NCBI GenBank assembly: GCA_016839445.1
Contig: JAEOUG010000054.1
Location: forward strand, 1 to 27,272
Origin: Candidatus Thorarchaeota archaeon
Lineage (GTDB): Archaea > Asgardarchaeota > Thorarchaeia > Thorarchaeales > Thorarchaeaceae
Reading direction: 5' to 3'
DNA length: 27,272 nt
Numbering within the stretch: the stretch's first letter is position 1; the number at the start of each line of letters is the position of its first letter. Position numbers and translations under genes: made by a program. This document shows positions 8,000 to 25,327 of the stretch, piece after piece. The notes under the pieces were generated by a model. That model made no database searches, was not told the origin of the DNA, and saw only the letters and a list, made by a program, of their open reading frames with translations.

Positions 8000-10900
8000 T
8001 CGTCCATCCCTCCTATCTGGTCAAGCAGAGCATCTATCTCTGCCTTCGTGAGGTGCTTGGCTTGTTCTATCATCAATTCAGCCTCTGATTCTTCAATGCC
8101 CATGGAGAGCAGTTTCTTTCTCAGTTGCTCGAGCTCCTCGTCAGAAAGACCAACAGGGGCGGCCTCCTCAACAGGAACCTCCTCGACGGCCTCAGCCAAC
8201 TCCTTAGCGCGCCTCGCACGTTCCTGCTTCAGAACCTCGTTGATGAAGCCAGCACGTTCACTTGGCCGCATCTTGTCGAGATCTGTTCGGAGAGTGTCTA
8301 TGTCCGCGTCAGTGAGTCCGACAACTGTGGCCAGCTCTAGGAGAAGGTCTTCAACATCCATCACGGTCACATCTACGGTGGACAATGCGATATCATCCTG
8401 AGTCTTCTTGATGCCGACTGGCGCCAGGTCCTCATTCATGATAGAGAGAAGCATCTCTCTCCTGCGGTGGACATTCGCGGGCCTAGGAATTCTTCCCTTT
8501 GAGAGCGCACCAACCATCCTTCTGAGAATTCGAAGGAGCCTAGGCACAGACAGGACTCTGAAGTACAGAACCGCCAGCCCAGCTATGGCCAGAATCAACA
8601 TGGTACCCCACTGGAATCCGGCAATAGCCAGCTCCTGTCCGGGGCTTAGTGAAGGATAGATGTCCAGTTCAACAATGCCCACTTGATAGTCTACCTTCCT
8701 TAACTCAATCCGTAGACTGTAGTATGCCAGGTTCGGAGCCCGGAACGCAAGAGAATAGCTCCCATTGCCATAGTTCACATCGAGTTCTGTGACGCGGGTG
8801 AGTCCTTGCTCAAGCGCGCTGGCCGAGATAACGCTGATCTCTGCGTCAGGAATTTGCAGACCGTGATCTATGTCCGTGAAGGTCACATTGACAAAGAACG
8901 TTTCACCAACATAGAGAACTGCTGGAGCGGGTGTGTGTGTGACTGTGGTTGCGATTCTTCTTATTGTCAGCGAGACGTCGATTTGAGCGCGAGAGTAGTT
9001 CCCTCGTGATATCGAGATTCGTAGAGAGTAGGGCGCATCGCGGTCCTGTAGCGGAGATGCCAAAGCAGCCTCCGTTGGACCAAACCGATAGGAGCCGTTT
9101 CCGAGATTGGTCAGAGGTACAGTGCCAAACTCCCAGACAGCAACAGCATCAGCGTCAGTGATCCATTCGCTGTTCAGGCTGTCCCAGTAGGAGAACAGCA
9201 TTGTATAGTCATCATAGACAGGAACAATCAGAGAGTTCTCCGCCTGCATGATTGTAGGTATGGGCTGAACGAGCAGCTTCACAAGTGTCGTGGAGAACTC
9301 GTAGTTGTCCTTCCTGAAAGTGACGGAAATGCTGTGCGGGACGCTGCCGGCCGTCACGAGAGACGTGTTGAGAGTCAGAGAATAGGTACCACCACCGAGG
9401 TCCACCAGAGAGCCTCTGAAGCTCTCAAGAGTATAGTTGGTGACCGCACCCGGAATGCCCTCCACAGCGTGTGTGTCGTTGAAGAGGAAGTAGAATGTGA
9501 CGTTGGTTCCGTAGTAGCCGCTGAGTGTGGCTTCAGTAAGAATAACGGCCTCGGTTTCAATCCTTTCGATTGAGAGCGTGTACTGTACCGAGGAGGGAGC
9601 ATAGCCGCCCTTTGAGCTAGAAATGGTGACCACCCAGTCGCCCACACTTAGGTAGCTAGTGTTGATGTAGGCAGTGTAGTAGCCAGGCGTCACATCCTCA
9701 ACAAGAGTGCCGACAACCCCCTCGCCTACGCCGAAGGTGACATTGGCACCAACGACTGGGAGTCCAAGGTCAGTGTTATTGAGATAGACTGTGATTTCCG
9801 CTATGTCTCTGAAGTTCACAACAACCAATGACTCGGTTATCGGGAGGGTCTCTGTGGAAACCTCTGTGATCTCTATCGAAATTTGAGTGCTGACGCTCTT
9901 GAAGTTGGGTGATGATGCCTGAATCAATATGTAGTAGAGACCCACATCGGCCCCACTCACGACCATGTATCCGACGTATTCGCCATCCAAGGCAGACCAG
10001 TCTAGAGTACCAGTTCCGCCAATCCAGCTGTAGGTCACAAGAGCAGGGGGCTGGATAGCAGTATCATTAGCGAGGACGAGATAGTCAACACGAATCGTGA
10101 CTGTGAGCCCGTCCACGGCACTTGTTGGGAGTAGGGACGCAGAGATTTTGGCAGGAATCTTGTCGATCCGAATCTGGAAGTCCCTTCTTCGGGTCTCGTA
10201 GTTAGCGAGTGTACACTCAACACTGATTGTATACTCTCCAGCAGTGAGTTCTCCTGTGTAGATAGAGGCGTTGTAGATTCCTGGAAGAACCTCGGTCATC
10301 AGGACCCACTCTGTAGAGAGGGTCAGATTCACTGCCGCCCCAATGACAGGAGCGCCTGTTCTGGCATCAGTGACGTTCGCTTGGAAATGAACCACGTCGC
10401 CAAATGAGGGAGTAGTGGGCCAGAATGTCAGCTCAATCTGAACTGGAACAGCTGCTAGAACGATGTCCACCTCGATGGACTGGCTCTGATGCAGAAACAG
10501 AGAGGCATTGATAGTGAAGCGATAGCCTTGAGCGGCCAAGAGTGATGTGTCAATTGCTATCTGATAGAGCCCACTGCCACCTCCGAGAGGAGTGATAGGT
10601 GCAGCGGTGCCGTAGAGAGCCGTCCAGTCTGTGACCACTGTGGCTCCGTCAATTCCAGTGTCGAACTCAATAGTCCTGTATGAGATGTTCGCATAGACAG
10701 TGTCGCCCAGATAGTAAGTCACTCCTTCTGGAAGAGTGAAGGTCAGTGTTGTGGAAACAGGATTCACGATGAGGGAGAAGTCGACACCTGTGATGTTCTG
10801 ATAGTAAGGAGCTCCTACCCACTCGAAGTCTGCTGTGAAGTTGTAGAGACCAAGGCCAGGGAGGGTGTTTGTGTCAATCAGGACTGTGTATGTACCATCA

Positions 10901-13900
10901 AGGTTGTCTACAAACCAGTATGTGAAGCCTCCTGTTTCGGGACTATCGATGGTCACGTCTGCACCGATGATTGGTGCTCCTGTGAGGTAGTCGCTGAACC
11001 TCAGCAAGGCAGTCATGTTGAAGTAGTAGTATCCTGGAGGAGTCTGTAGCACCGTTACCTGAGTGGAGCGAGCTTGAATGTCTACCTCTGTAGAGGTTGT
11101 GGAGTTTCCGTAGTAGGGAGTGACATCACCCCAGTAGAAGAGGACGAAGATAGGATGTCCCTCCACAAGAGCAGAAGTGAGAGTCAGAGAGTTGACTTGG
11201 ATGGTGTAGACACCGTCCGCTCCAGTGAGAGTATATTGTCCATCAGCTATCACTGTGCCAAGACCATGAGAGAGTATGAGATTGGCCTTTGTGAGAACGA
11301 TCCCAGTTCCATCTAGTTCATCAGTGATGGTTATCTCGAAGCTCACGTCGGATCCATAGGGAGTGTTCAGTGGAGACTTCGACACGCTTAGGCTTGCGGG
11401 ACGTCGTGAGACCTCAATGCCAACATTGCGGACTCGTGTTTGATAGAATGGTTCGCCTGAAGTCCACTGTGCAGTGACAGTGATTGTGTAAGGGCCGAAG
11501 TTGCCAAGCGCGTTAGTGTCGATTCTGATTCTGTAACTTCCGTCAAGGAAGTCGTCAACCCAGTAATTGACTCCAAGAGCGAGGGTTTCGTCGGCCGCCG
11601 CACATGCAATCGTGATGGTTGCGCCGTCAATCCCTGCGTCAGTGTTGTCATCGATGTAGTATACGGTGATGTTGGCCTGAGTCAAGAACGGAGCAAGGTC
11701 AGGAAGATCGCTGGTGAGCTGCGTCCTCCGGATGACAATCGAGAGGAAGAATGAATCAGTGGCATCTGAGCAGTACCTGCTTCCTCCGTACTCCATGGAT
11801 ACGTTAACTGTGAATACGCCCAATTCGCCGAAGACAATAGTGTTGAGATGGAGAGTATAGAGACCATTACCAAGATCATCAACAGAGTAGTAGCCCACTA
11901 GGCCTGCATCCAGAGTGAGGGTTCCCCCGCCCATCAATGCAGTTGAGTAATCATCCAGGTCACGATATGTGAAGTTGAGGTGCAGAACGTTCCCATACTG
12001 GACAGGAGCATATGAACCGTGTGTAAGACTTGTATACCGATCTCGAACGGTTATTGGTATGGAGATGCTGGTTCTGTTTTGATAGAATGGGCTTCCTACC
12101 CACTCAGCGTTAACCAGAATCGAGTGACTCCCGGGTGTGAAGACGGAAGTATCAATCTCAATGTAGAAGATGCCAGTAACGTCGCCATCATAGTAGATCG
12201 TGAAGCCATATCCGGTGACGCTGATTGTGAGCTCTAGACCATTCAATATGGGTTGCCCTGAGAGCGAGTCTCGGAACACTATACTGAGGTTCACCAACTC
12301 GTCATAGGGAGTCACAGGGATCGGACTCCAATCGAGGGTGGTGAGACGGCTTACTGTGGTGATGGTGATTAGAATGACCTGATTCTGATAGTATGGCAGC
12401 TGCCCACTGGTCCAGTTGAACCAGATGCGAAGCTCGAGGTCTCCGAGGCCAGAGAGGAGGCCTGTGTCAAAGAGAATCCTGTACTCACCGGGATTCGTGA
12501 TTGCATTTACCTCGGAGATTGTCATATCACTCTGAGTGATTGACTCTCCTGCAGTCAACACGTCTATGTAGATGTGAACGTTACCTGCGAACAGACCAGT
12601 TGTGTTCACGATGCCACCGTTGGCGCCAACGTCGAAGAACACGATGGTGAAGCTAACATCCTCGTCATATGGTGTGACTACGGGGCTCTCACCCAAGAAG
12701 ACGTCAGTAGGTGCAGCGGTTATGACAACACTTGTAGAGACCCATAGGTTGGAGTACTTGGTGTTGACACCTACCCAGTTCATGTAGAAGGTAAGGCCAA
12801 CGGTTCCTACGTCACCCCATTGATCCGCAGGAAGGACAATCGTGTAGAGCCCCTCAGGTGAAATGCTAACCACATAGAACGTCGGCGATGGCAGCGTTGG
12901 GCTCGTGATAATGAGCTGCACAATTCCACCAGGAGTGGTTCCGTTCACAATGCCCGTGTCCGCGTCGACGTCGTAGTAGACCAGATTGACGGTGATATTC
13001 CCAGTGAAGGGAGTTGGGTCAACTGCGTTATTCAAGTACATTGATGTTAGGTGCGTCCGGAGCTCAACTGTGACAATGAAGCTATGGTTCTGGGCCCCGT
13101 ACTGCTCTACCTGGAAGAGAATGTCATAGGTGCCCAGGGGGTCATCGTCTGCGGAATTGATGCTAACCCTGTAGACACCTGGAGTCGCGGTCTCAGTGAC
13201 CGTGAAGTCAGACCAATTACAGGAGATTGCAGATTCCGCCCCACTGATTGGAGCCTTCAGGTCTGTGTCCCTGTAGGTGATTGTGAAGGTGGTTGTGTAA
13301 CCCACCGGGAGAGAGAGGAAACTGGATGACGGAATAGCTGAAGTATGTAGCTCTCGAACGTCAACTGAGAGGATGATAGAAGTGGGATCGTGGAAATTCT
13401 TCTTCGCAGTTATGAGAATGTTGTAGATGTCGAGAGCAACTCCTGTGGTATCGAGACTCAGGGTGTAGTAGCCTGGAGCTCCTGGTGTCACGCTATAGCT
13501 CTGTGTCCAGTTGCATGTGATTCCTGCTCCAGTGATTGGCTGAGAGTTCATATTCTCGAAGTAGAGCTCCAGTTCTGCCGAATACCCACTTGGCACATCA
13601 ATCCCCGGTGCATCTGAGGAGTACAAGTCAGTCTCATAGATGACGTTTATCGTGAACGATTGAAGGATGGAATCATAGAACGACTTGCTCCAGGAGAAGT
13701 CGACCTCAAACTGCCCATTGGTGCCCAGAGTCCCTGTGTCCAGATTCAGGCTGTACTCGCCTGTACCCATGTCGTTGGCTGTTCCTGACCCGAAGTCGCC
13801 TGAGTACTGCATCACTCCGCCGGCCAGCAGATCACCATTGTCCGTGTCATTGACACGTAGTTGAATGAACACCAGATCTCCGTACGTCACATTGACAGAC

Positions 13901-15804
13901 CATGTAGTCTTGGCACTGATGGGATACTTCACAGATACCTGAGTGCCATGCTCAATACTGAAGGAACGTCTGAAATAACCCACATTGTGGACGTACCCAG
14001 TCGACGACTCGTCAGTCACAAATGCCTGTACCTCCCAGTCGCCTACGTCAGCAGTCACTGCGTCGAGGTTCACATATCCCGATGTGGCCAGACCGCCAGC
14101 ATCGACAACAGCCTGTAGCGTATCCCAGACAACACCACTGGAATCGTATATGACAAACGTGACGATGTCGCCCTCATACGCAGATGAGAGGGTAGCTCGG
14201 AACCTAGTGTCCTCGTCAGCCCTGAAGGTCCCCGTAGGTACCCAAGAAGTAGCGTCATCGTCCCAGACGCTCAGACCGGAAATCATGTTCGGCGATGTAC
14301 CTCGTAACATCCAAAGGCCATTCGGATCATCTAAGCCCACGGAGTAGACAGATACATTCAGGACGCCGTCACCGGGGTCTCCAAGCCACCAATTGCTTGT
14401 GAGATTGGTGAACCGGTGGAATGGCTCAGATACGAAATTGATGTCGCGATTCAATGGGAGACTCACGTTGAAGAAGTACTGACTCCCATAGCCGCCCGGA
14501 ACTGAAACATAGAAGTTGGTTTCCCAAGATACGGTACTCGCGTTGGAAACTTGGTAGTTGTCTCCCACAGTGAGCAACTCGGTGTTACCAATCGTTGGGC
14601 TTAGCAGACGACGTGCGAAGACCCAGACATTGACATCTATGTTGACATTGATATCGAAATCCGGATCGGGCGGAAATGGTGAGGGAGTCCATGAGAAGTT
14701 GGCATATGCAGCCCCTGATGACCATGGTGTAAGCGGCTCATAGTAGGCGGTACCCAGCCCGAAGACAGGATCCAATCCGACAATGACGTTGTCGACATCA
14801 ACTCCATTCATCTGTAGGTTGACATCTTCGGGTGTGGCCTTTGCTGTGATGTAGATTAGGATGTTGTCGACACGCGCTCTCGGATTGATGTCTGGGCGCC
14901 ACCACTCTAAGGCAGTGGTTCTGAGACCTGCCCAGATCGACACATTCGGCAGGCTCATGACAGACGGGTCCACGCTGACGAAGCCTGTCGAGTACCATAT
15001 ACCGTCATCAGCGATTGCATCAAATGGGATGCTCCACAAGTACTCGCCGCCGTTGTCAGGGTCGCCGACGGAAACGAAGACCTCAAAGAAACCTGTCATG
15101 TATCCAGCCCAAGCGACATCAGCCCAATAGTCAAGTGAAATGCCGAGAGAGGTCACGTCCCCACGATCAATAGTGAGGTTCTGGACCATGTAGGCCTTGT
15201 CACCTACATCATACCAGTCGCCGTACAGGCCACCGCCTGCGTCGTAGTAATAACCATCCATGTAGAAGTAGGCTGCACCATCTCCTGTTCCATGTCCGTC
15301 TGCTTGCCACTGGGATGTGAGGGCATTAGTATAGGACGGACCGAACGCTGAAGCAATGTCATCGGTCTCAAAGGACCAACTCGAGCTGTCGTCGAGGCCG
15401 GAATTGTCAATCCACGTTCTGTTCTCAGTTATGCTTGTTATGTCAGCATAGACACCATAGCTCTCCCATCCCTCGCCGAGCGGTACAGAGAGATTCGCGG
15501 TAGACAGTGACGAAGTGCCTGAGTCATAGTCCATGCTTTCATCGACAAACGTGTCCACGCGGATGCCAGATTCGTTTGCGAGAAGAGGATCTCCCGTCCC
15601 AGTTCGACCTGTGGGCACATCAGAGAGTCGATACTCATAGACAACCTCATCGGGAGCCACTTGAATCAACTCACCGTTTGAGAGTTCGACAGTCTTGCTT
15701 CCCGCAGAGCCAGTGTTCGCATTCAATGAAGATGGCGTCATCATGACACCCATCATCAATGGCACAAACACAAGCAGCAGTCCTATCATTCTCTTTGGCC
15801 GCAT
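7996..15804 (-). CDS. Giant single-pass cell-surface glycoprotein B (~2602 aa), full-length paralog of protein A
   Basis: Start reassigned from 15870 to ATG 15804: MRPKRMIGLLLVFVPLMMGVMM is a signal peptide and AGGAGTG (SD) lies at 15811-15817. It is collinear with protein A (GWE..ENRTW, TIDRG.V, W(S/T)WTP-like, SPNMI, RTDL..MRPSER.GF). TM at ~8551-8616. Confidence 0.9.
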   Translation of the reverse strand: MRPKRMIGLLLVFVPLMMGVMMTPSSLNANTGSAGSKTVELSNGELIQVAPDEVVYEYRLSDVPTGRTGTGDPLLANESGIRVDTFVDESMDYDSGTSSLSTANLSVPLGEGWESYGVYADITSITENRTWIDNSGLDDSSSWSFETDDIASAFGPSYTNALTSQWQADGHGTGDGAAYFYMDGYYYDAGGGLYGDWYDVGDKAYMVQNLTIDRGDVTSLGISLDYWADVAWAGYMTGFFEVFVSVGDPDNGGEYLWSIPFDAIADDGIWYSTGFVSVDPSVMSLPNVSIWAGLRTTALEWWRPDINPRARVDNILIYITAKATPEDVNLQMNGVDVDNVIVGLDPVFGLGTAYYEPLTPWSSGAAYANFSWTPSPFPPDPDFDINVNIDVNVWVFARRLLSPTIGNTELLTVGDNYQVSNASTVSWETNFYVSVPGGYGSQYFFNVSLPLNRDINFVSEPFHRFTNLTSNWWLGDPGDGVLNVSVYSVGLDDPNGLWMLRGTSPNMISGLSVWDDDATSWVPTGTFRADEDTRFRATLSSAYEGDIVTFVIYDSSGVVWDTLQAVVDAGGLATSGYVNLDAVTADVGDWEVQAFVTDESSTGYVHNVGYFRRSFSIEHGTQVSVKYPISAKTTWSVNVTYGDLVFIQLRVNDTDNGDLLAGGVMQYSGDFGSGTANDMGTGEYSLNLDTGTLGTNGQFEVDFSWSKSFYDSILQSFTINVIYETDLYSSDAPGIDVPSGYSAELELYFENMNSQPITGAGITCNWTQSYSVTPGAPGYYTLSLDTTGVALDIYNILITAKKNFHDPTSIILSVDVRELHTSAIPSSSFLSLPVGYTTTFTITYRDTDLKAPISGAESAISCNWSDFTVTETATPGVYRVSINSADDDPLGTYDILFQVEQYGAQNHSFIVTVELRTHLTSMYLNNAVDPTPFTGNITVNLVYYDVDADTGIVNGTTPGGIVQLIITSPTLPSPTFYVVSISPEGLYTIVLPADQWGDVGTVGLTFYMNWVGVNTKYSNLWVSTSVVITAAPTDVFLGESPVVTPYDEDVSFTIVFFDVGANGGIVNTTGLFAGNVHIYIDVLTAGESITQSDMTISEVNAITNPGEYRILFDTGLLSGLGDLELRIWFNWTSGQLPYYQNQVILITITTVSRLTTLDWSPIPVTPYDELVNLSIVFRDSLSGQPILNGLELTISVTGYGFTIYYDGDVTGIFYIEIDTSVFTPGSHSILVNAEWVGSPFYQNRTSISIPITVRDRYTSLTHGSYAPVQYGNVLHLNFTYRDLDDYSTALMGGGTLTLDAGLVGYYSVDDLGNGLYTLHLNTIVFGELGVFTVNVSMEYGGSRYCSDATDSFFLSIVIRRTQLTSDLPDLAPFLTQANITVYYIDDNTDAGIDGATITIACAAADETLALGVNYWVDDFLDGSYRIRIDTNALGNFGPYTITVTAQWTSGEPFYQTRVRNVGIEVSRRPASLSVSKSPLNTPYGSDVSFEITITDELDGTGIVLTKANLILSHGLGTVIADGQYTLTGADGVYTIQVNSLTLTSALVEGHPIFVLFYWGDVTPYYGNSTTSTEVDIQARSTQVTVLQTPPGYYYFNMTALLRFSDYLTGAPIIGADVTIDSPETGGFTYWFVDNLDGTYTVLIDTNTLPGLGLYNFTADFEWVGAPYYQNITGVDFSLIVNPVSTTLTFTLPEGVTYYLGDTVYANISYRTIEFDTGIDGATVVTDWTALYGTAAPITPLGGGSGLYQIAIDTSLLAAQGYRFTINASLFLHQSQSIEVDIVLAAVPVQIELTFWPTTPSFGDVVHFQANVTDARTGAPVIGAAVNLTLSTEWVLMTEVLPGIYNASIYTGELTAGEYTISVECTLANYETRRRDFQIRIDKIPAKISASLLPTSAVDGLTVTIRVDYLVLANDTAIQPPALVTYSWIGGTGTLDWSALDGEYVGYMVVSGADVGLYYILIQASSPNFKSVSTQISIEITEVSTETLPITESLVVVNFRDIAEITVYLNNTDLGLPVVGANVTFGVGEGVVGTLVEDVTPGYYTAYINTSYLSVGDWVVTISSSKGGYAPSSVQYTLSIERIETEAVILTEATLSGYYGTNVTFYFLFNDTHAVEGIPGAVTNYTLESFRGSLVDLGGGTYSLTLNTSLVTAGSVPHSISVTFRKDNYEFSTTLVKLLVQPIPTIMQAENSLIVPVYDDYTMLFSYWDSLNSEWITDADAVAVWEFGTVPLTNLGNGSYRFGPTEAALASPLQDRDAPYSLRISISRGNYSRAQIDVSLTIRRIATTVTHTPAPAVLYVGETFFVNVTFTDIDHGLQIPDAEISVISASALEQGLTRVTELDVNYGNGSYSLAFRAPNLAYYSLRIELRKVDYQVGIVELDIYPSLSPGQELAIAGFQWGTMLILAIAGLAVLYFRVLSVPRLLRILRRMVGALSKGRIPRPANVHRRREMLLSIMNEDLAPVGIKKTQDDIALSTVDVTVMDVEDLLLELATVVGLTDADIDTLRTDLDKMRPSERAGFINEVLKQERARRAKELAEAVEEVPVEEAAPVGLSDEELEQLRKKLLSMGIEESEAELMIEQAKHLTKAEIDALLDQIGGMDE
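8660..13950 (-). repeat. 17 degenerate tandem Ig-like protein repeats in protein B
   Basis: Same consensus as protein A, e.g. PFLTQANITVYYIDDNTDAGIDGA, YYGTNVTFYFLFNDTHAVEGIPGA, YVGETFFVNVTFTDIDHGLQIPDA. Boundaries are approximate. Confidence 0.8.
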
Positions 15805-15902
15805 ATGGTACACTCCTAAACAGGTATAGTCGTCACTATCCGCTGGACAGACGCAAGAAGGCATCACCACTATATGAATGGATGCTCTGTAAAGCCGACT
15901 CT

Positions 15903-15970: not shown

Positions 15971-18142
15971 TCAGCTTGGATGGACTCTTCGTCTGAGGAC
16001 AATGACCACTCCAGCGAGTGAGAGCACAGATACCGTCACAGCTGCGCCCACAACCAGAGGATTGAGTCCTTCGCCCAAGGGCAGACGTAGCAGCCCACCT
16101 TCCGCCGAGTTCATAGCCCAATCCCAAGCCACAAGCCAGACTGTGGCGGCCTCATCATAGACTACTGGATCTATGACGCAGCTCCAGTTTCCTCCTCCAT
16201 ATTCACAGGGGTACACAAGCGGGGTTGAGTTATCCACCTGAACATAGACTGTGACATTCTCTAATCCAGCAGTATCGTCAGTCACCGTGGCCCAGTATGT
16301 GAAGCTGTCTGTTGATGGACGCGCAGGTATTGTACCCCACCGCTGTATCATTGGGGCCACAGAATCATGTCTTGAGTATATCATGCGCTTACTCCAGTCT
16401 CGAGCCTTGCAGAGCATATCATAGCATTTCAACCAGTCCATCTGATTGTAGGCTTCTCGCGCCAAGTCGAAGCAAGTCAGCGCATTCTGTTCGGCGAGAA
16501 GAGTCTCCTCTCGGTCGGTAGGCTCGACGAAGGTTTGTCTGTACTGGAACTCATCCCAGGTGAGTGCTTCCATCTGGTCCAGAAACGTCCCCTGTACCCA
16601 GTCTTTGTCGAAACTGGAAGTGCCATTGTGGTCAGCGAAGTAACCCATCGGGCCATAACTGAAGTCACCTGTATAGTGCTCATGAACCCATGTGTGTCCG
16701 AAGCCAACTGCGTGCATCGACTCGTGAAGTTGTACTGAAGACACGCCGTTCCTTGGCGTTACGTTGTCAGAACGATAATAGCGCTCCCATGATTTCCAAA
16801 TCACAGTCTGGCCGCCAAACTCGCCATTGTAACCCAGACCAGTGTAGGTGCCGTCTCCGTAGTACATCACCATGTTCTGCTTAATGAAGACAACACCAAA
16901 GACACTGACAAGATCAGGACCTGTAGGGATGCGGTAGGGTCGGACAACTTCATAGATATAGTTGAACATCTCTCCTCCGTCTACTTCAGTGACTCCTTCC
17001 TCGTTTACCGATGCCGAACGCCAGAAGGTGTAGTTCCAAGCGGCATCTTGGTTGATGTCGACGAAGTCCAACTGGACATTCCAGTCAATGAAGGGATAGA
17101 GCTCCTCAAGGTGATGCTGCTGCATCTCCGCATCTGTGACCCAGCGAAGGCTATCTACAGAGATTCCGCTCTCGACATCCATGCAAACCACTGTCACCCG
17201 AAGCTCGCCTGAGGTCACATACTTCGCCGGGCTGTGCTGCACAGGGAACAACAGAAACGAAACTATGTCAAACATGTAATTGCGGAGATACACACTGAGC
17301 TGGTTGACACCGGTGGGTGTTCCAAGATCAACCTCAGCAACCTTGTCCTCGAGATCCTTCGTCCAATGATCGTAGTCAGCCCCTATGTAGTCCTGCCACC
17401 AGATACGAGCCCAACGAAGGTACCACTGATTTGCGGATGGATCCAGAGCGTAGATGTTCCCTCTGCCACCGAATCCTGCGTACTGCATCTCGAGCGGCGG
17501 ATTTAGGTCGTGGTCAAACTCAAGTCGGAACCAGTCCTGCATCATCCCCGTGTCGGGATCCTGTGCCGCATAGTCATACCAGTGTTCTAGCTCATGCCCT
17601 GGAGTATCCATGCTTGAGAAGTTGAGAAGATACAGGTTGTATCCCAAGCTTGGTGGTGCGACACAGGGATGCTCCATGAGCCAGTCTTCAAGAGCAATCC
17701 CGTCAATTGCCCGACCATCGCGCGGATTGAAGACCCTGATGGGAGTGCCTGGGTCCCCTCTCTGAATGGAGAGTGCGCTACTATTGAGCTTGGTGCCAAT
17801 GCCTGTTCCGTTAACCGAATTATCGAGAGCAAACGCCCGAAGGGCTGAGGAGTAGCTCTCGTTTGCGTAGTGAATCTGATAATCGAAGTTGTAAGTTATC
17901 CCGACATCATCTGTCTGGTGTAGGCGAGAAGCGGGCATGGTGTTTAGGAGAGTGTCTTCATTGATGTTGTCGGCATCATAGTCGACGAGAATGACGTTGA
18001 GCGTCCAATCCCTCTCGATATATACCAAATCTTGTGACGGAGCATAGGTAATATCGTGTGACGGCTTTGCCTCCGGCACGGTGCCTAGAGGTAGAGTCGC
18101 AGCTAGGAGAACCAAGACGGCAAAGAGCGCAGCACGAGCCAT
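15971..18142 (-). CDS. Secreted, C-terminally membrane-anchored zinc metalloprotease (metzincin), 723 aa
   Basis: Signal peptide MARAALFAVLVLLAATLPLG. The motif HESMHAVGFGH (16694-16726) fits HExxHxxGxxH, with a Met-turn-like GPMGY shortly after. A short helical bundle and an Ig-like domain (ATVTDDTAGLENVTVYV...AWDWAMNS) follow, then TM PLVVGAAVTVSVLSLAGVVIVL and RRR. Confidence 0.88.
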   Translation of the reverse strand: MARAALFAVLVLLAATLPLGTVPEAKPSHDITYAPSQDLVYIERDWTLNVILVDYDADNINEDTLLNTMPASRLHQTDDVGITYNFDYQIHYANESYSSALRAFALDNSVNGTGIGTKLNSSALSIQRGDPGTPIRVFNPRDGRAIDGIALEDWLMEHPCVAPPSLGYNLYLLNFSSMDTPGHELEHWYDYAAQDPDTGMMQDWFRLEFDHDLNPPLEMQYAGFGGRGNIYALDPSANQWYLRWARIWWQDYIGADYDHWTKDLEDKVAEVDLGTPTGVNQLSVYLRNYMFDIVSFLLFPVQHSPAKYVTSGELRVTVVCMDVESGISVDSLRWVTDAEMQQHHLEELYPFIDWNVQLDFVDINQDAAWNYTFWRSASVNEEGVTEVDGGEMFNYIYEVVRPYRIPTGPDLVSVFGVVFIKQNMVMYYGDGTYTGLGYNGEFGGQTVIWKSWERYYRSDNVTPRNGVSSVQLHESMHAVGFGHTWVHEHYTGDFSYGPMGYFADHNGTSSFDKDWVQGTFLDQMEALTWDEFQYRQTFVEPTDREETLLAEQNALTCFDLAREAYNQMDWLKCYDMLCKARDWSKRMIYSRHDSVAPMIQRWGTIPARPSTDSFTYWATVTDDTAGLENVTVYVQVDNSTPLVYPCEYGGGNWSCVIDPVVYDEAATVWLVAWDWAMNSAEGGLLRLPLGEGLNPLVVGAAVTVSVLSLAGVVIVLRRRVHPS

Positions 18143-18166
18143 AGCCAGAGTAAGAGAGGCCGAGAG

Positions 18167-18173
18167 ATATTAA
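18167..18173 (-). promoter_or_regulatory. Putative TATA box for the metalloprotease gene (leaderless)
   Basis: Minus strand TTAATAT ends ~25 nt upstream of ATG 18142, with no SD before the start. Confidence 0.5.
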
Positions 18174-18227
18174 CAATCTGGTTCCCGTAAGCCTTGGGAA
18201 CGGCGCCATTCTGTATATATCCACATA

Positions 18228-18235
18228 TTATATAT
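18228..18235 (+). promoter_or_regulatory. Putative TATA box driving the candidate structured RNA
   Basis: TTATATAT in a strongly AT-rich patch, ending 26 nt before the first base of the predicted closing helix at 18261. Confidence 0.45.
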
Positions 18236-18260
18236 TAGGAGCTATCATCACTGTGGTCAC

Positions 18261-18377
18261 GTGCGTCGGCTGAAGAGAAACTGCTTCGACTCATCCAAGA
18301 GCCCGAGCGGCTGCTGCACTCGTTTCCGCAGGCGAGTGCGTCGACAACTTCGATCCCCAAGAACCTAGCCGGCGCAT
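18261..18377 (+). ncRNA. Candidate structured non-coding RNA (multi-branch, ~117-155 nt), family not recognised
   Basis: An 11-bp closing helix (18261-18271 with 18367-18377) encloses three hairpins: 18281-18310, 18316-18339 and 18340-18354. Several G-U pairs work only on the + strand. TATA upstream, T-tracts downstream. Confidence 0.5.
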
Positions 18378-18390
18378 ATCTCCTCACGCT

Positions 18391-18417
18391 ATCTCCTCTC
18401 CTCCTTTTTCTTTTTTC
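18391..18417 (+). terminator. Archaeal-type oligo-T terminator candidate
   Basis: Pyrimidine tract ending CCTTTTTCTTTTTTC (T5 at 18405-18409, T6 at 18411-18416). No + strand protein gene lies upstream of it. Confidence 0.5.
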
Positions 18418-18488
18418 ATCTCAATGACTCTGATGCAGGTACTCTTAAATTGCGGTCGCGATTGTCGCCGCCTCTTGGAGAACTACCT

Positions 18489-19928
18489 ATGCCTGCAGCT
18501 AAGAGGCCCTCGCTCAAGGAAGTCCTAGACATCAAATCTGTGGCAATTGTAGGTGTGTCAGCCAAGCTTGGGTACTACTGGGTTCATTCGATGCTCCAGT
18601 GGGACCATGAATTGGATGTGCATCTCGTATCGGTCAAGGGAGGCGAGGTCATGGGTAGAAGAATCTTAGAGTCCCTCGAAGAAGTCCCGGGCTCTATTGA
18701 CTACGCAATCGTCGCGGTCCCGTACAAGTACGTTCCCCAGACATTGAAGGAAGTCAGCATGAAGGGTGCCAAGGGAGCTACGGTCTTCACAAGTGGATTC
18801 TCCGAGCTGGGTACTCCGGATGGTCAGAAGCGTGAAGATGAGCTAAGGCAACTTGTGCAGAGTCTCCCGACTCGGGTTCTGGGGCCCAACTGCATGGGTC
18901 TAATGTACCCGAAACTGGGCTTTGCGTTCATGCCCACCGTGAAGCGGCTACCAGGAAGTGTGGGCTTCGTATCGCAATCAGGCGGCGTCGCAATTGCCAC
19001 CTACACTGCGGGCGTCGAGTCAGGAGTAGGCTTCAGCAAGCTGTTCAGTTTTGGAAACCAAATCGACATCACACCATCGGAGATTCTCGAGTACTTTGCT
19101 GATGACAAAGAAACGAAGGTTGTTGGCGGATACATTGAAGGAACCCGACATGGGAGAGCTATGCTTGATGCCCTCTCGAAGCTTGCTGTCAGGAAACCGG
19201 TAGTTGTGTTGAAGGGCGGACGATCTGAAGAAGGGTCTCGAGCGGTGTCTTCCCATACAGGTGCGCTGTCGGGAAGTCGCCAAATCTGGGATGCAGTCTT
19301 CAAGCAGGCAAACATCCAGGTTGTCACAACCCTTGAAGACCTGGTGGCTACACTGAGCGTGTTCTCACTGAGCCCTCCACCCAAATCGAGAAGGCTAGGA
19401 CTTGTGGCGATCAGCGGCGGCACCAGTGTGATCTACACAGATCTGTGCATCGAGCACGGTCTTGAGGTTCCACGGACGTCGCAAGCAACAATCGACAAAC
19501 TAGATCCTCTCATTCGAGACGTGGGTACGGGTCTAGGCAATCCCATAGACCTGGCAGCGGATTACTACCAAGACCAGACGGTCTCAGAGGTGGTTGACAT
19601 AGTCGGTAACGAGGACAGGTTCGATTCGCTCATTCTAGAGGCCGATGTTCACAACATGCATCAAGTGGCTACCATCATGGGGGCTGCCGACTTTCTGCCA
19701 GATTACTGGAGGGCAATGGCAAGGGCAGGGAAGAAGGTGGCCGACAGACTTGGGAAGCCCGTGCTTGTCTCAGTACCAGAGGTGGCGTATCCAATTCCCA
19801 GGGCTGCCGCGTGGAATGTGTTCATAGAGGAGGGGCTTCCAGTCTTTAGGAACACTCGCGAGGCAGTATCTGCTCTGGCTAGAGTATGTGAATACTACGA
19901 GACAAGGGACAGGCGAGAGGCCAGCTAG
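18489..19928 (+). CDS. Acyl-CoA synthetase (ADP/NDP-forming), alpha subunit (CoA-binding plus two ligase-CoA domains)
   Basis: Motifs SVAIVGVS, IDYAIVAVP, FTSGFSELG, RVLGPNCMG, VSQSGG, SFGNQIDI, LKGGRSEEGSRAVSSHTGALSG (phospho-His at 19254-19256), SGG and NPIDL. Start moved to ATG 18489 (GGAG at 18477-18480; TTAAAT at 18445-18450). There is no ATP-grasp domain. Confidence 0.92.
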   Translation: MPAAKRPSLKEVLDIKSVAIVGVSAKLGYYWVHSMLQWDHELDVHLVSVKGGEVMGRRILESLEEVPGSIDYAIVAVPYKYVPQTLKEVSMKGAKGATVFTSGFSELGTPDGQKREDELRQLVQSLPTRVLGPNCMGLMYPKLGFAFMPTVKRLPGSVGFVSQSGGVAIATYTAGVESGVGFSKLFSFGNQIDITPSEILEYFADDKETKVVGGYIEGTRHGRAMLDALSKLAVRKPVVVLKGGRSEEGSRAVSSHTGALSGSRQIWDAVFKQANIQVVTTLEDLVATLSVFSLSPPPKSRRLGLVAISGGTSVIYTDLCIEHGLEVPRTSQATIDKLDPLIRDVGTGLGNPIDLAADYYQDQTVSEVVDIVGNEDRFDSLILEADVHNMHQVATIMGAADFLPDYWRAMARAGKKVADRLGKPVLVSVPEVAYPIPRAAAWNVFIEEGLPVFRNTREAVSALARVCEYYETRDRREAS

Positions 19929-20579: not shown

Positions 20580-21725
20580 TCAGAAGCGTAGTAGTGGGTG
20601 TGTTGTGTCGTAGTGACCTAGTGCGAGATGGTTGATGTGTTCCTGCAGACTGCGTGATGCAAGAACAGGGCTGGTTGGTCTGATGGAACGGTCCTCTGTT
20701 GTGGCAAGCTCAAACCCCAGGTCAGAGAAGCAAGTCCTGATGCGTTCCAGTCCCTGCAGGTCGGTCCGGAGACCTAGGCCCAAAGCGGATAGAATCTGAG
20801 AACCGTAATGAGTGCTCCAGAGCCCCCTCAGATAGACTCGACTCGCACGAAGTGGAACTCTTAGCTCGTCTATCTCTCTTTTCCTCTGTTCGACCAAGGC
20901 AGGTATAAGACGAGAGGCCCCGGTCCTCCTCATCAGCTCAGTGTCCAAGAAGAGAGTAGATCCACCTCTCGATATCTGCTTCTCAAGAAGTTCGAGCGCA
21001 CGTTCATGGATTGTGTTGATGGCCTCAGCGTAGCTCATGTGGCTACTTGTACCCTCGAGAAGATCTTGCGGGTTACCATCATAGCCGCTTAGCTCCCCCA
21101 GACCGAGACCTACCATCATCCCGCGCTGCGCCGAGAACCAGTCGTCCCGGGATACTCGCACAAGAACTGACTCAATGCGAGATCTTGTCATGTGCCATTT
21201 CTCAGCTGCGAAGGACTCGTACCCCATCCAGATGATGACTGGAAAGCCACTCCACCGTACGCGGTCCGTTCTCATCAGATAGATCTTCTCCTCAATCTGC
21301 TTTCTGGTCAGCAACCATATGAGAATCGCATCCGCTGTAACGACAACCGAAGAATCCAGATACAGCAAGGCTCTACCAAGGACAGGAGTGATATCTAGGT
21401 GTCTGAGTGTCTTGTTGAATGACAGGTCGATCTGCTGCAGTCTAGAGTTGCCAGCAAGAGGCCACAGATCTAATGATTCGAGCCTGTTCTCACGGGCGAT
21501 AATCGATTCTAGCTCTGAGCATGTGCTCAGAGGATTCAGGTCAACGGTCCCTAGTGCATTGCGTGAGAGGTCCAGAATGGTGAGGTTCTTACAGTGAACT
21601 AGGTCCGAGAGGTCTACCTCTTTGGCGTGCATGTTCCTGAAGCGAATCTCAGTTGCATCAGCCGGATACTCAGGCGCTTCCTGACGGCCGAAGTCCCCGT
21701 CATGCTTTATTCGAATCGAATTCAT
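20580..21725 (-). CDS. Cytoplasmic leucine-rich-repeat protein (~381 aa) with a helical C-terminal domain
   Basis: About four 22-23-aa LRRs: EVDLSDLVHCKNLTILDLSRNAL / GTVDLNPLSTCSELESIIARENRL / ESLDLWPLAGNSRLQQIDLSFNKTL / RHLDITPV. Start moved to ATG 21725 (MNSIRIK) because the longer ORF overlaps the upstream gene. No signal peptide or TM. Confidence 0.85.
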   Translation of the reverse strand: MNSIRIKHDGDFGRQEAPEYPADATEIRFRNMHAKEVDLSDLVHCKNLTILDLSRNALGTVDLNPLSTCSELESIIARENRLESLDLWPLAGNSRLQQIDLSFNKTLRHLDITPVLGRALLYLDSSVVVTADAILIWLLTRKQIEEKIYLMRTDRVRWSGFPVIIWMGYESFAAEKWHMTRSRIESVLVRVSRDDWFSAQRGMMVGLGLGELSGYDGNPQDLLEGTSSHMSYAEAINTIHERALELLEKQISRGGSTLFLDTELMRRTGASRLIPALVEQRKREIDELRVPLRASRVYLRGLWSTHYGSQILSALGLGLRTDLQGLERIRTCFSDLGFELATTEDRSIRPTSPVLASRSLQEHINHLALGHYDTTHPLLRF

Positions 21726-21787
21726 CTCTCTGCCCTGACCTGCACGGGCAATGAGCCTTTGGACTTCAATGTTTGCCTGAATCTCGC

Positions 21788-24700
21788 CTAGCCTTCCAGT
21801 GGGGGTAGACCGCCCGTAACAGGAATCAGATGTCCCTTTGTCACAGCATCCAAGACACAACGGTAGGCTCTCAGCTCTGTGTAGCCCAGAAGCACGACAG
21901 ATCGCACAATCTGCTCTGGTGACAATCCGTGGTCAATCTCCGTTGACGCGAATGCGTCCATCACCGGCCTCAAGTGGTCTGGTATCGTCTTCTTGACGCC
22001 CACATATTTGTCGAGCAGAGCGCCATCGAAGTAACTCTCAAAGAGTGGGTCAAGCACGTTTCTGACCGATTCAGACACTTCAGGGGTCAGACCGGTCGGC
22101 CTTGCGATGTGCTCATCCGAGTCGTATAGGCCACCGACTGCCCGCGCGAAATCCTCAAGGTTCTCTTTGAGCCTCTGTGAAGCTGGGTCAACTGTGATAA
22201 TAGCAAAGATGAGTTGCTCTGACTGGACGGCTGTGATGGCTTCCGTTATGGGAATGGCAGTCCATATTGGCTCGCTCATGGAGAATTCATCCCGGAAGTG
22301 GGATATGGCAGATATGAACGAACCCAGCATTGATTCCTGGAAGACTCCCTTGAGCACCTTGGAGTATACTGACAGTCCTGTGAGCCTCTGAATCGTGAGG
22401 AATCCAAGTAGGTTCTTCACATCGTCGAACCTAGATTTGAGCCCAATAAGCTCAAGGTTCCTTCGAGCCATCACTGACATGTAGTATCGACGGCCGTAGG
22501 TGAGCCCAACACCCACCAGCAAGAGAGCCAGACCTCCAAGGAAACCGGCTCTGAAGGCAATGGCATACAAGGAGCCAGCGTCTGGTACAGTCAACTGGAT
22601 GCTACAGACAGCCGCATCATAGAACGGTATCGTGATGCTGATCTCTATCTCATACTCGCCTGCTGCAAGATCTGAGACGTTGAAGGCGGCCTCCCACCAG
22701 CTTCGAGCAAGGTTAGGACTGAAGGAAACGATTTGCGACGAGAGATTCCCAATGACTGCTGCGCCAGCCAGAATGGCATAGCCGTTATCCTGGTCGTAAA
22801 GGTGGACAGCGGCAGTGAACTCCTCCTCGTCGTCGATGCTCACGCTCGGGGTATGAGGGAAGGCAGTTATCCCATGGTGTACTTCGAAGGCCTGAAGCCC
22901 ATAGGCAACCTCTGTTCCGTTCCTCCAGAATACGACCGAGGCCCACTGACCGATAGAGGCGTTGACTGGGCCGAGAGTCAGGGGCGTTGTGAAGGCCAGG
23001 CTAGAATTGACGACTGAGATGTTCTCTGAGCTCCAAACGGAGCCCGTTGGTTCAAGGATCTCGAAGTATACATCGTTGACTTGACCGACAGTCTGGCTTG
23101 CTGTGCCTATGGTAGCAGAACACCGAAGACGACTATTGCTCCTGAAAACATAAGCTGAAACCCAATGCGAGCTCTCCGGAGGCCAGTCTTCCGTGCTGAC
23201 TTCATATGCGTAGTTGGGAGATTGGCACTCGAATGTCCACCATCCAGCCGACCCAACAAGCCCTGAGGGCACGTGGACACAGCCAACACATGGAATGCAG
23301 GCCTGAGTCACGTCGCTCCCTAGGGGATCCATTACTGCCTCCAGAACCCAGTCGGTCGGATGGATAATCGATAGAGAGAGATCCTCAGCTTCGGCATATG
23401 ATTCGACATAGTAGCACCAAGTGACCGTTGACGGCTCGTTGACTTCTACAGTGAATGATGTCCCTTGTGTTTCGGAACTTGCGGTTGGGGAAGAGCTACC
23501 AAATCGACTCATCCGCGTGACAGCTGCAGAGAACTCGAATGATACCGTAGTATTGGCGGTCACAGTGACTGGAATAGAAACAAGGGTCCAGTAGGTGTAG
23601 TTCAGCACTACGCTCCCTTGACCCTCGTGTCCTGCAAACTCGACGCTCCCAGAGAAGGAGTTGGAGGCACTCAGATCCACACTCTCGAAGGTCGGTGCGT
23701 CTTGCGCTACGAGCGAAACATCATCCAGAAGGAAGGTCAGGTACTGCCCGTTTGTGGCATCGCCATCGAGATCCGGGTCGTCAATAGGAATCTGGATGTA
23801 GCCACCCGGTGTGTCAATCTTGAGAGACACTCTCAGTTCGAACACCGTGGGGCATGAAGGAATGCTGAGCTGAGTAGGACCCAGAGCTAGCCATTCTCCA
23901 CGGCCTGTTATGTTTGTAGGATCAATGCTCCAGGACCAGAGCTCAGTAGAGCCGTTTAGGACTTCGACCGTGAAGTCAAAGAGGCCAGCGAAGTTCTCAC
24001 CTATCGGACCATGCAGATACTGGTAGCCAAGGTCAAGAATGAAGTCCTCGTTGTGTTCATAGTTCTGAATCGTCTGATACCAGTATACTCTCGTACCGTT
24101 ATAGTGCCTGAAACCGTCTGGTGTGGTCACCTCATAACCTTCATTCTCGATAGTAACGTAGCCGTCATCTGCCAGAGAATACGATGTCCGCTGTCTTCCC
24201 AAGCCAGAGATGATCTCGCGACGCGCGGCCCATCCATACGGAGCATACACTCCATCACCATACCAATCCACATTCGTTCCGGGATTCCCGTCTTCGAAAG
24301 AACCATTGAGAGCAATCAGGCGTTTCAGGTTTCGAACCGTGACTGTGACTTCACTCCCACGCCAGCCAAGGGGGCCTCTGAACACATCGAAGCTGTAAGT
24401 GTAACCTCCGGAAGCGTGGAGATCTTCGTCACCCGCCGTGTCTGTGAGGTCCTCTTCGAATTCGTAGTAGTGACTCAGGTATGGCTCCGTCCCGGCGAGG
24501 ACGGCAAGATAATCGCTTCTGATTTCATCCAAGTTCCTCTCTACGGACCAGAACCTAAACTCATCGACGCGTCCGACTACGAAGGAACTTGTTCTCGCTG
24601 CGGAGTTCATGATGTTGTTCTCTGTGTGTCGTCCGATGGTAGAGGTGTACCAGCTAGTAGACGCCGCATCTACCACAGGAAGGGTTTCTTCGTCGCCCCA

Positions 24701-25327
24701 GACGATAGTCAGGTCATTAGAGGTCTCATTCCAAGTAATCGCGATGAAGTACCAATGGTGAGGAACCCAGTCGTTCTTGTTCCCTGTGAGAGAGCCGTCC
24801 CCACCCCAATCCAGAACTAGGCGTCCTAGCTGCCATCGCGTCTCGAAGTCTTGATCCTGTCCCCAGAATCGCCCTGTCGCAGCTTCCTCTGTCCACATCA
24901 GCCAGAGGGATATGGTTCCCGCCACGCCGCTGAAATCTGCGCTCCCACCCTCTCCTACGAGGAAGTAGTCACCCGAACATTCAGCCGATCTTAGATTCCC
25001 AGGAGCACCTGCCGGCAACCATACTTCACCGGTAGGGTATGGGTTGACGTCCGTGCGTGCGTGGGTGTACAGAGTGGGCTCTGAAGGTACTGCCCTCTCC
25101 TCTACAACGACAGGGTCCAAGATTCCTGAGTAAGGCTGTAGATAGTCCTGGGCCGGACCATACGCAAAATCAGAGGAGGATGACGAGAGTGTTATCCTAG
25201 GCAGCACGACGGGACCAGTGTAGGCGGGAAGCGGTAGACATGCTAGAACCATACATGCGAGAAGTGTGACGGTTGGCCCGCAATGCCGCAATGTTTCTTG
25301 ACTCCCACTCTGGTTGTATGCAACCAT
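21788..25327 (-). CDS. Receptor-like single-pass membrane protein C (1179 aa): LamG/ConA-like domain, head homologous to proteins A/B, one Ig-like repeat, TM, cytoplasmic longin-like plus winged-helix-like domains
   Basis: LamG-like motifs GTISLWLMW, WYFIAITWN, GRVDEFRFWSVERNLDEI and HYYEFEEDLTDTAG. TM FRAGFLGGLALLLVGVGLTYG at ~22492-22556. The tail LLGFLTIQRLTGLSVYSK..ESMLGSFISAISHFRDEF matches the Asgard longin-like pattern. The start codon is uncertain (25327 or 25252). Confidence 0.82.
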   Translation of the reverse strand: MVAYNQSGSQETLRHCGPTVTLLACMVLACLPLPAYTGPVVLPRITLSSSSSDFAYGPAQDYLQPYSGILDPVVVEERAVPSEPTLYTHARTDVNPYPTGEVWLPAGAPGNLRSAECSGDYFLVGEGGSADFSGVAGTISLWLMWTEEAATGRFWGQDQDFETRWQLGRLVLDWGGDGSLTGNKNDWVPHHWYFIAITWNETSNDLTIVWGDEETLPVVDAASTSWYTSTIGRHTENNIMNSAARTSSFVVGRVDEFRFWSVERNLDEIRSDYLAVLAGTEPYLSHYYEFEEDLTDTAGDEDLHASGGYTYSFDVFRGPLGWRGSEVTVTVRNLKRLIALNGSFEDGNPGTNVDWYGDGVYAPYGWAARREIISGLGRQRTSYSLADDGYVTIENEGYEVTTPDGFRHYNGTRVYWYQTIQNYEHNEDFILDLGYQYLHGPIGENFAGLFDFTVEVLNGSTELWSWSIDPTNITGRGEWLALGPTQLSIPSCPTVFELRVSLKIDTPGGYIQIPIDDPDLDGDATNGQYLTFLLDDVSLVAQDAPTFESVDLSASNSFSGSVEFAGHEGQGSVVLNYTYWTLVSIPVTVTANTTVSFEFSAAVTRMSRFGSSSPTASSETQGTSFTVEVNEPSTVTWCYYVESYAEAEDLSLSIIHPTDWVLEAVMDPLGSDVTQACIPCVGCVHVPSGLVGSAGWWTFECQSPNYAYEVSTEDWPPESSHWVSAYVFRSNSRLRCSATIGTASQTVGQVNDVYFEILEPTGSVWSSENISVVNSSLAFTTPLTLGPVNASIGQWASVVFWRNGTEVAYGLQAFEVHHGITAFPHTPSVSIDDEEEFTAAVHLYDQDNGYAILAGAAVIGNLSSQIVSFSPNLARSWWEAAFNVSDLAAGEYEIEISITIPFYDAAVCSIQLTVPDAGSLYAIAFRAGFLGGLALLLVGVGLTYGRRYYMSVMARRNLELIGLKSRFDDVKNLLGFLTIQRLTGLSVYSKVLKGVFQESMLGSFISAISHFRDEFSMSEPIWTAIPITEAITAVQSEQLIFAIITVDPASQRLKENLEDFARAVGGLYDSDEHIARPTGLTPEVSESVRNVLDPLFESYFDGALLDKYVGVKKTIPDHLRPVMDAFASTEIDHGLSPEQIVRSVVLLGYTELRAYRCVLDAVTKGHLIPVTGGLPPLEG

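Follow-up and report, generated by a model that had tools for sequence, protein, structure and literature searches.

Does the 346-nt intergenic gap between two divergent genes of a Thorarchaeota archaeon hold the leader of one of its neighbours or a gene for a separate RNA and, if the latter, what might such an RNA do? The stretch of DNA analysed here, referred to below as the window, comprises positions 1 to 27,272 of contig JAEOUG010000054.1 (Candidatus Thorarchaeota archaeon, assembly GCA_016839445.1). A first-pass annotation made from the letters alone had described a structured RNA within this gap, with its own promoter and terminator, and offered two interpretations: a discrete small RNA, or a leader that acts on the acyl-CoA synthetase gene to the right in the manner of an attenuator or riboswitch. 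The comparative analysis summarised here argues strongly for the former, and we regard the element as very probably a stand-alone small RNA gene. Our fuller reading, to which we give somewhat better than an even chance, is that a structured small RNA of ~130–155 nt has a gene of its own at 18259 to about 18416 (+ strand) and masks ribosome-binding sites with its tail. The source is an archaeon, with archaeal small subunit ribosomal RNA (SSU rRNA) genes present in the genus, and all of the genomes compared are metagenome-assembled and incomplete; the window's own genome (2.9 Mb) is 89.8% complete.

The window's own sequence folds better than chance to a modest degree and on the + strand only. 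The minimum-energy structure of 18228–18417 (−56.4 kcal/mol, z −2.40) is equalled by 4 of 200 shuffled sequences and displays the four helices originally described, all of which lie where the annotation had put them: P1 (18261–71 with 18367–77), P2 (18281–310), P3 (18316–39) and P4 (18340–54). For the core alone (18255–18385) z is −2.70 and a single shuffle in 200 does equally well, whereas the reverse complement scores z +0.10, with 103 of 200 shuffles equally good. P1 is formed by GUGCGUCGGCU (18261–18271, core GCGUCGG at 18263–69) and AGCCGGCGCAU (18367–18377, core CCGGCGC at 18369–75), which pair over 11 bp including two G-U pairs. P3 (18316–18339) is a 10-bp hairpin of GCACUCGUUU and AGGCGAGUGC with a near-invariant loop region, GUUUCCGCAGGC, and P4 (18340–18354) is a local hairpin of GUCGA with UCGAU. 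The decisive support for the fold comes not from the energy of this single sequence but from comparison across copies.

A BLAST-type search of relatives identified the 3′ half of the element, at 72–78% identity, in nine genomes of the same genus, and alignment of the surrounding DNA located the whole element at the same place. A covariance model (R1) was built from ten copies; the conserved body of the window's RNA (18259–18388, + strand) spans all of it, positions 1–128 of 128. R1 finds exactly one full-length match, at 47–148 bits, in each of 22 of the 28 genus genomes. In the window's genome the sole match scores 84.7 bits (E 1.8e-17), and a strict end-stem pattern also occurs there just once in 2.9 Mb. 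No R1 match is found in G022, a genus genome that is 71% complete. The element is therefore conserved within the genus and single-copy in the genomes that carry it.

Base-pairing within the element is conserved too. The alignment fitted to the model has 93.4% of its cells paired (slid controls, 31–37%) and compensatory change at 21 of 33 pairs; such an alignment is biased towards the model, and the count was therefore redone on a structure-blind MAFFT alignment of the 22 genus copies. RNAalifold, run on this blind alignment, returns three helices: P1 with 11 bp, P3 with 8 bp and the 3-bp core of a short hairpin. Across these helices 93.2% of cells are paired, compared with 29–44% in slid controls, and 15 of 22 base pairs are compensatory. 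None of 500 shuffles reached the observed value for four of the five measures used, and 25 of 500 did so for the remaining one, the count of further pair types. Helix by helix, P1 has 94–97% of its cells paired, with compensatory changes, and P3 92%, with compensation at seven of eight pairs and a loop that is invariant in the genus alignment. The short hairpin (18299–18312), made up in the window of GCC/GGC plus a G-U pair, takes the place in the consensus of the P2 first described. Its 3-bp core is 92% paired on the blind alignment and seven of its eight pairs are compensatory on the model-fitted one; in the window's own sequence it is weak.

Of the four helices in the first-pass annotation, then, P1 and P3 are borne out by covariation and P2 and P4 are not. 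The latter two together are 49.8% paired on the blind alignment, a value matched by 105 of 500 shuffles, and P4 by itself, at 56.9%, is no better than shuffles and forms only here and in a few divergent copies. P2 and P4 are folds of the window's own sequence, not conserved helices. A long-range alternative to P2, in which the P4 segment pairs with 18286–91 (AUCGGU with AUCGAU), is 87.8% paired on the model-fitted alignment. There is little variation in this helix, some copies cannot form it and the blind alignment does not show it, so that its presence in most copies is tentative. Because many G-U pairs that would become A-C mismatches on the other strand are conserved, the + strand orientation favoured from the outset, with which the folding energies also agree, is confirmed. 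A separate observation concerns the loop of P3, where UCCGCAG (18323–18332, + strand) has its complement in CUGCGGA, on the 3′ side of the final 16S rRNA hairpin, which directly precedes the anti-Shine-Dalgarno tail (locus L054, 2980–3002). On a rough estimate, a match of 7 nt within a region of 40 nt is about what chance would give, and the loop is not retained in other genera.

Could the region instead encode a small protein, or an RNA of a known class? No conserved open reading frame (ORF) was found among the 22 genus copies: the longest ORFs lie on differing strands and in differing frames between copies, and a frame opening at the GUG in P1 runs for 3–58 codons, has five codons or fewer in nine of the 22 copies and lacks a start codon in four. 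A small protein-coding RNA was rejected on these grounds. Rfam 15 (4227 models, gathering scores) gives no match anywhere in the window or in 20 loci of the family, and a permissive Rfam scan of 18100–18520 yields only a fragment of the Lysine riboswitch on the − strand (13 bits against a cut-off of 30 bits, E 0.53). ARAGORN finds no tRNA or tmRNA gene in the window. The first-pass annotation, which had recognised no known family here, was right on this point.

Three further classes were considered and set aside. A C/D box small RNA would carry a C box (RUGAUGA) and a D box (CUGA) at its ends; by eye, the consensus of the 22 copies has neither, with GUGAUGC present internally in some. In an H/ACA RNA the stem would be followed by ACA, whereas P1 is followed by UCUCCUCACC; CACA occurs in two of the 22 copies, 7–10 nt past the stem. 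A Y RNA would be associated with Ro, and PF05731 (TROVE) has no match in the 89.8%-complete genome, in which positive controls were matched. Literature searches for small RNAs of Asgard archaea or Thorarchaeota, at the level of titles and abstracts, turned up no description of any. We place the element in a new RNA family, of the general kind of archaeal intergenic regulatory small RNAs.

The signals flanking the fold are those that might be anticipated of an independent archaeal gene. A TATA-box-like element, TTATATATT, lies at 18228–18236 (+ strand) and reads TATATTA in most relatives. The promoter-like TTATATAT (18228–35) has its 3′ end 26 nt upstream of the first base of the stem, as first described, and each of the 22 genus copies carries a TATA-like block, ATATTATATTA, whose spacing to the stem is fixed. 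By script count, the 3′ end of the TATA element is 24–26 nt before the GCG of P1 in most of the 49 copies of the wider family discussed below. In archaeal promoters this is the spacing expected for a transcription start at the foot of P1, and we infer that transcription begins there. A scan for sigma-70-type promoters and hairpin terminators was set aside, being inapplicable to an archaeon.

Immediately downstream of P1 is a single-stranded 3′ tail (18379–18388, + strand), UCUCCUCACG in the window and UCUCCUCACC in most copies, that resembles the anti-Shine-Dalgarno sequence. No part of the element is better conserved than this tail, UCUCCUCAC(C), which is near-invariant across all 22 copies of the genus. 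It is predicted to be mostly unpaired, and the first 20 nt after P1 contain 2% G. The window's copy alone has a second CU-rich repeat, TATCTCCTCTCCTCC (18390–18404, + strand), between the tail and the T-tract that follows; with it, the gap to the ATG of the synthetase gene is 100 nt, compared with 70–91 nt in relatives.

The T-tract itself (T5-C-T6, 18405–18416, + strand), also present where the first-pass annotation had placed it, is the likely terminator. By script count, a run of at least five T is found within 45 nt after P1 in 15 of the 22 genus copies, and of at least four in 20. The background in the window's genome is far lower: T5 runs occur in 0.3% of 10,770 sampled 30-nt windows and in 0.7% of 460 lying outside long ORFs. 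Binomial figures for this excess are overstated, as related genomes are not independent, yet the enrichment is plain. The genome-wide rarity of T5 runs would fit with oligo-T being a termination signal that is avoided elsewhere. According to passages of one study, polyU motifs are the cis element in archaeal termination and are often only 30–80% efficient (PMC10450193).

Beyond the genus the RNA belongs to a wider family. A further 27 copies were scored in 13 other genera which, with the 22 above, makes 49 copies in 14 genera; by eye there is one more short-interior variant and one possible variant. The copies outside the genus came from a second model (R2), inspection upstream of orthologues of the left-hand gene and a regular expression, and their discovery is biased towards copies that retain the GCGUCGG...CCGRCGC stem and a place beside the left gene. 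Genome-wide searches not tied to that gene point in the same direction. The pattern TATATTA-N19-29-GCGTCGG-N56-86-CCGRCGC is found in nine of 85 genomes of the taxonomic family and in none of 314 genomes from other families of the phylum, with no match for the reversed control, and a comparison of coordinates places all nine matches beside the left gene. A class-wide R1 search under stricter filters returned the genus copies only (22 of 87 genomes). R2 run on 40 genomes gave only weak matches (E 0.05–0.5), two of eight of which proved real, and R2 run without filters on 23 synthetase loci gave nothing real. Among the genomes searched, the RNA is confined to one family of Thorarchaeota.

What unites these copies is an upstream box of the TATATTA type, an 8-bp stem (GCGUCGGY/RCCGRCGC), a G-poor interior and a pyrimidine-rich tail with 2–6% G in its first 20 nt. 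The stem is paired in 48–49 of the 49 copies; its sequence scarcely varies, and compensations, among them a change from G-C to A-U in one genus, are rare. The interior, by contrast, is variable: 56–98 nt in length, with a mean G content of 0.21 in the window's genus versus 0.16 elsewhere and C at 0.28–0.30, it is mostly unstructured in other genera and its sequence is replaced from one genus to the next. In genus g25 a conserved CA- and CU-rich stretch, GACUCCACACACAC, lies inside the loop. Four loci of genus g29 (L144, L145, L148 and L150) have a conserved ACTGAAAAACAGTGAGGCGATCGGTGGCTCTTTCACCGGGTCACC with hairpin potential after the CU tail, into which the RNA of this genus may extend.

Which of its neighbours, if either, does the element serve? 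On the right, the synthetase gene (18489–19928, + strand; Pfam CoA_binding_2 and Succ_CoA_lig) encodes the alpha subunit of an ADP-forming acyl-CoA synthetase and lies outside the RNA unit, with GGAGA at 18477–81 its likely Shine-Dalgarno sequence. On the left is the gene for a probable secreted metallopeptidase (15971–18142, − strand). Within the genus, synteny cannot decide the matter because the synthetase follows in 22 of 22 loci, its ATG 70–100 nt after the RNA on the same strand, and the left gene diverges in 21 of 22 (the remaining contig being too short to tell). It is this constancy, together with three loci in one other genus, that might suggest a cis-acting leader (a riboswitch or attenuator) in which conditional read-through of the T-tract allows the CU tail to hide GGAGA. 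The UCUCC of the tail is indeed complementary to GGAGA, and with archaeal terminators often only 30–80% efficient some read-through is plausible, to go by the same passages (PMC10450193). In outward form, too, the element resembles a riboswitch or attenuator, with several helices enclosed by P1, a T-tract after the fold and a metabolic gene downstream on the same strand. We nevertheless consider a leader improbable. Between the T-tract and the ATG is a strongly conserved block, CAGGTACTCTTAAAT (18436–18450, + strand), that synthetase orthologues retain 37–63 nt upstream of their ATG whether they have the RNA or lack it, and those that lack it include two species of the same genus and many other genera; since it persists where the RNA is absent, it looks like the synthetase's own promoter. 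Outside the genus, the synthetase is downstream of only three of 27 copies, the three loci just mentioned. Copies from six other genera are followed by an ORF that runs towards them, with no synthetase nearby; in still others, what comes next is an unrelated gene or one that begins only after hundreds of bases. In hypothetical read-through transcripts the predicted probability of pairing between tail and GGAGA is at most 0.25 in all 22 loci and mostly near zero (a thermodynamic prediction), and where the tail reads UCUUC instead, as it does in two variants, the Shine-Dalgarno site has not clearly changed to compensate. Finally, the part that would have to be the aptamer varies across the family and P1 is conserved, the reverse of what a ligand-binding aptamer should show.

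For the left gene the argument is one of context, its divergent position being the only one retained in 14 genera: the RNA lies divergently, 90–310 nt upstream of its start, at every copy found in other genera as well as in 21 of the 22 genus loci. The element might be a divergent promoter-associated transcript that tunes the protease gene, either through the act of transcription or through its product, whether in cis or by forming a duplex with the mRNA; we give this a slim chance. Predicted duplexes between the RNA and the 5′ region of the left gene are no better than shuffles, with a mean z of −0.34 (14 of 22 loci, 20 mononucleotide shuffles each), a figure of little weight that is based on crude segments of which some were probably placed at the wrong TATA; the left gene has its own TATA-like element ~25–30 nt before its ATG; and the RNA was not seen upstream of nine orthologues of the left gene, two of them from species of the window's genus. 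As to chance structure or a conserved spacer devoid of function, its one attraction is the single-sequence z-score of only −2.4 to −2.7. Set against the compensatory changes on the blind alignment, the 500 shuffles of which none scored as high, the single copy per genome and the signature common to the whole family, it is barely credible. A stand-alone gene accounts for the one copy in each of 22 of 28 genomes, the fixed TATA spacing and the T-tracts as well as for the covariation, and of the two interpretations offered at the outset it is the discrete small RNA that has held up.

The constant partner of this gene is of some interest in itself. The left-hand protein (723 amino acids) has ~150 homologues, mostly from Thorarchaeota and all annotated as hypothetical. 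It contains the sequence HESMHAVGFGH at residue 473 and a second motif, HELEH, at residue 183, and the HExxHxxGxxH signature is present in all 120 of the homologues fetched. We take this signature to be the extended zinc-binding motif of the metzincin metallopeptidases. The N-terminus has a hydrophobic stretch resembling a signal peptide. No Pfam family matches the protein, the only hit being a sub-threshold one to Astacin (E 0.78); sequence comparison found no relative of solved structure, and an Atlas search returned the protein's own cluster only. It is probably a secreted zinc metallopeptidase, found Thorarchaeota-wide and lying outside the families in Pfam. That the RNA gene in this genus sits between a gene for an extracellular protease and one for an ATP-yielding acyl-CoA synthetase of amino-acid fermentation suggests a theme, and we take it as nothing stronger.

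How might the RNA act? We propose that transcription would be directed by the gene's own TATA box to start at the foot of P1, and would end at the oligo-T tract. The product would be closed by its GC-rich, near-invariant end stem, which in this genus would enclose the two well-supported hairpins and be followed by the unpaired, G-free tail. This tail, together with two unpaired stretches, AUCCUC and AUCCCC, could then pair with ribosome-binding sites of the GGAG/GGUGA type in target mRNAs and so block the initiation of translation, with the end stem either protecting both ends of the RNA or acting as a handle for a protein. Among the actions that can be envisaged, masking of ribosome-binding sites by the tail strikes us as the likeliest, a preference that we hold tentatively and at rather less than even confidence. 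It draws on several features of the genome. The Shine-Dalgarno signal (GGAG/GAGG/GGUG/GUGA) peaks at −14 to −10 and is present at 41% of 973 confident starts, compared with 15% in a control stretch. The 3′ end of 16S rRNA from a member of the genus reads GGAUCACCUCCU, and the tail contains CUCCU and UCACC, which are both halves of the anti-Shine-Dalgarno sequence in swapped order. AUCCUC and AUCCCC provide two more unpaired C-rich stretches and are conserved in the genus.

There are precedents for an RNA of this kind. Passages of PMC5867862 describe sRNA41 and loop 2 of sRNA154 of Methanosarcina mazei as archaeal small RNA elements that mask ribosome-binding sites. Like these, the window's RNA appears at the sequence level to be an intergenic gene with its own TATA element and T-tract, has a stable fold exposing a pyrimidine-rich stretch complementary to GGAG-type sites and, in this genus, lies beside genes of central carbon and acetyl-CoA metabolism. 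It differs in sharing no sequence or structural homology with them (Rfam finds none), in having its candidate seed in a 3′ tail rather than a hairpin loop, in the invariance of its end-stem sequence and in coming from an uncultured Asgard lineage. The C-rich-motif small RNAs of the Firmicutes (RsaE/RoxS type) likewise have several unpaired C-rich motifs (here AUCCUC, AUCCCC and UCUCCUC, which could pair with G-rich Shine-Dalgarno sequences) in a G-poor RNA; they belong to another domain of life, show no homology and carry UCCC in hairpin loops, whereas the motifs in the window are CUCC/CCUC and have no known link to Hfq or another chaperone. From riboswitches and attenuators, whose outward form it shares, the RNA is set apart by its conserved P1 and variable interior, by the probable promoter between fold and gene and by relatives that precede no gene.

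A number of observations tell against masking by the tail, or against the strength of the case for it. The tail is a permuted and inexact copy of the 16S 3′ end, and only ~5 contiguous bases pair with a consensus Shine-Dalgarno sequence. The exact 10-mer complementary to the tail occurs 10 times in the genome, against 6.1 expected; few complementary 9-mers lie 5–10 nt before likely starts, and such sites are too few and too like Shine-Dalgarno sequences in general for targets to be named. Outside the genus the tail is CU-rich with a different sequence, three of the four scored copies in genus g25 have no CU-rich tail, and runs of at least five T are far less regular (six of 27 copies). Genomes of one genus are related to each other, so that counts across copies overstate their independence. 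Among sequencing runs, none of RNA was listed as containing the stretch, and the contigs of three metatranscriptome runs do not reach it even at 80% likeness, a result that is silent on expression either way; one contig of DNA type matches 18534–18698. Lastly, a base-pairing model leaves the near-invariance of the end-stem sequence unexplained, which points towards a protein partner.

This last point underlies a different explanation, namely that the RNA is a protein-bound scaffold or decoy in which a dedicated protein reads the invariant 8-bp end helix and the pyrimidine-rich interior and tail bind or titrate either a pyrimidine-binding factor, for instance an Sm-like protein, or the ribosome, in a manner presumably broadly comparable to Y RNAs or protein-sponge RNAs. 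The stem is, after all, conserved in sequence beyond what pairing demands, in 48–49 of 49 copies across 14 genera in which the interior has been replaced; outside the window's genus those interiors contain little G and, for the most part, no structure, and the 3′ end in the window's genus is U-rich. No candidate partner protein is linked to the RNA, however: the constant neighbour, with its protease motif and signal-peptide-like N-terminus, is an unlikely RNA binder, and the TROVE (Ro) family was not found in the window's genome at its 89.8% completeness. On balance we regard a scaffold or decoy as possible, if doubtful. A broader proposal would make the RNA the first representative of a class of ribonucleoprotein RNAs peculiar to Asgard archaea. 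A dedicated protein would sit on the end helix, the G-free interior and tail, which resemble the 3′ end of 16S rRNA, would serve as a general decoy for Shine-Dalgarno sequences or the small ribosomal subunit, and global translation would be coupled to extracellular protein breakdown. The coupling is proposed in view of the constant partnership between the RNA and the gene for the secreted metzincin-like protease, and the proposal as a whole seems unlikely to us. Masking of ribosome-binding sites by the tail of a stand-alone small RNA remains the action that we prefer.

Several other features of the locus and its relatives deserve mention. Downstream of CAGGTACTCTTAAAT, within 18436–18476 (+ strand), is a short inverted repeat, CGAGG...CCCTCG in most relatives, that is kept across many genera with or without the RNA; the region is likely to comprise the promoter of the synthetase gene plus a binding site for a regulator. 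In another Thorarchaeota group (L087–L091 and L093) the synthetase gene lies beside some other gene, and the ~250 nt of intergenic DNA upstream of it, strongly conserved but unlike that of the window, may hold another RNA or regulatory element. Elsewhere in the window, an ORF of 2624 amino acids occupies 7996–15870 (− strand), and two more on the same strand encode a protein with weak leucine-rich-repeat matches (20580–21860) and a 1179-amino acid protein with a weak Laminin_G_3 match (21788–25327). All three look like large surface or secreted proteins, grouped around the protease gene. In a further locus (L057; G015:C73:13812-16104) the 16S rRNA match extends over 2293 nt, against the 1478 positions of the model, which suggests that this gene carries one or more insertions or introns.

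Almost nothing is known of RNA-based regulation in the Asgard archaea, the closest known prokaryotic relatives of eukaryotes. The locus described here offers an RNA gene backed by comparison, with a putative promoter, a fold supported by covariation, an invariant single-stranded motif and a likely terminator, and with a covariance model now in existence the RNA could be put forward as a new Rfam family. It also serves as a reminder that a fold with the look of a leader, even in front of a metabolic gene, can be something other than a riboswitch. Found in no fewer than 14 genera, always beside the same gene for a probable secreted protease, the RNA may provide an entry point to two questions in the biology of these organisms: whether ribosome-binding sites are masked by small RNAs in Asgard archaea, and whether the fermentation of proteins and peptides is controlled after transcription.

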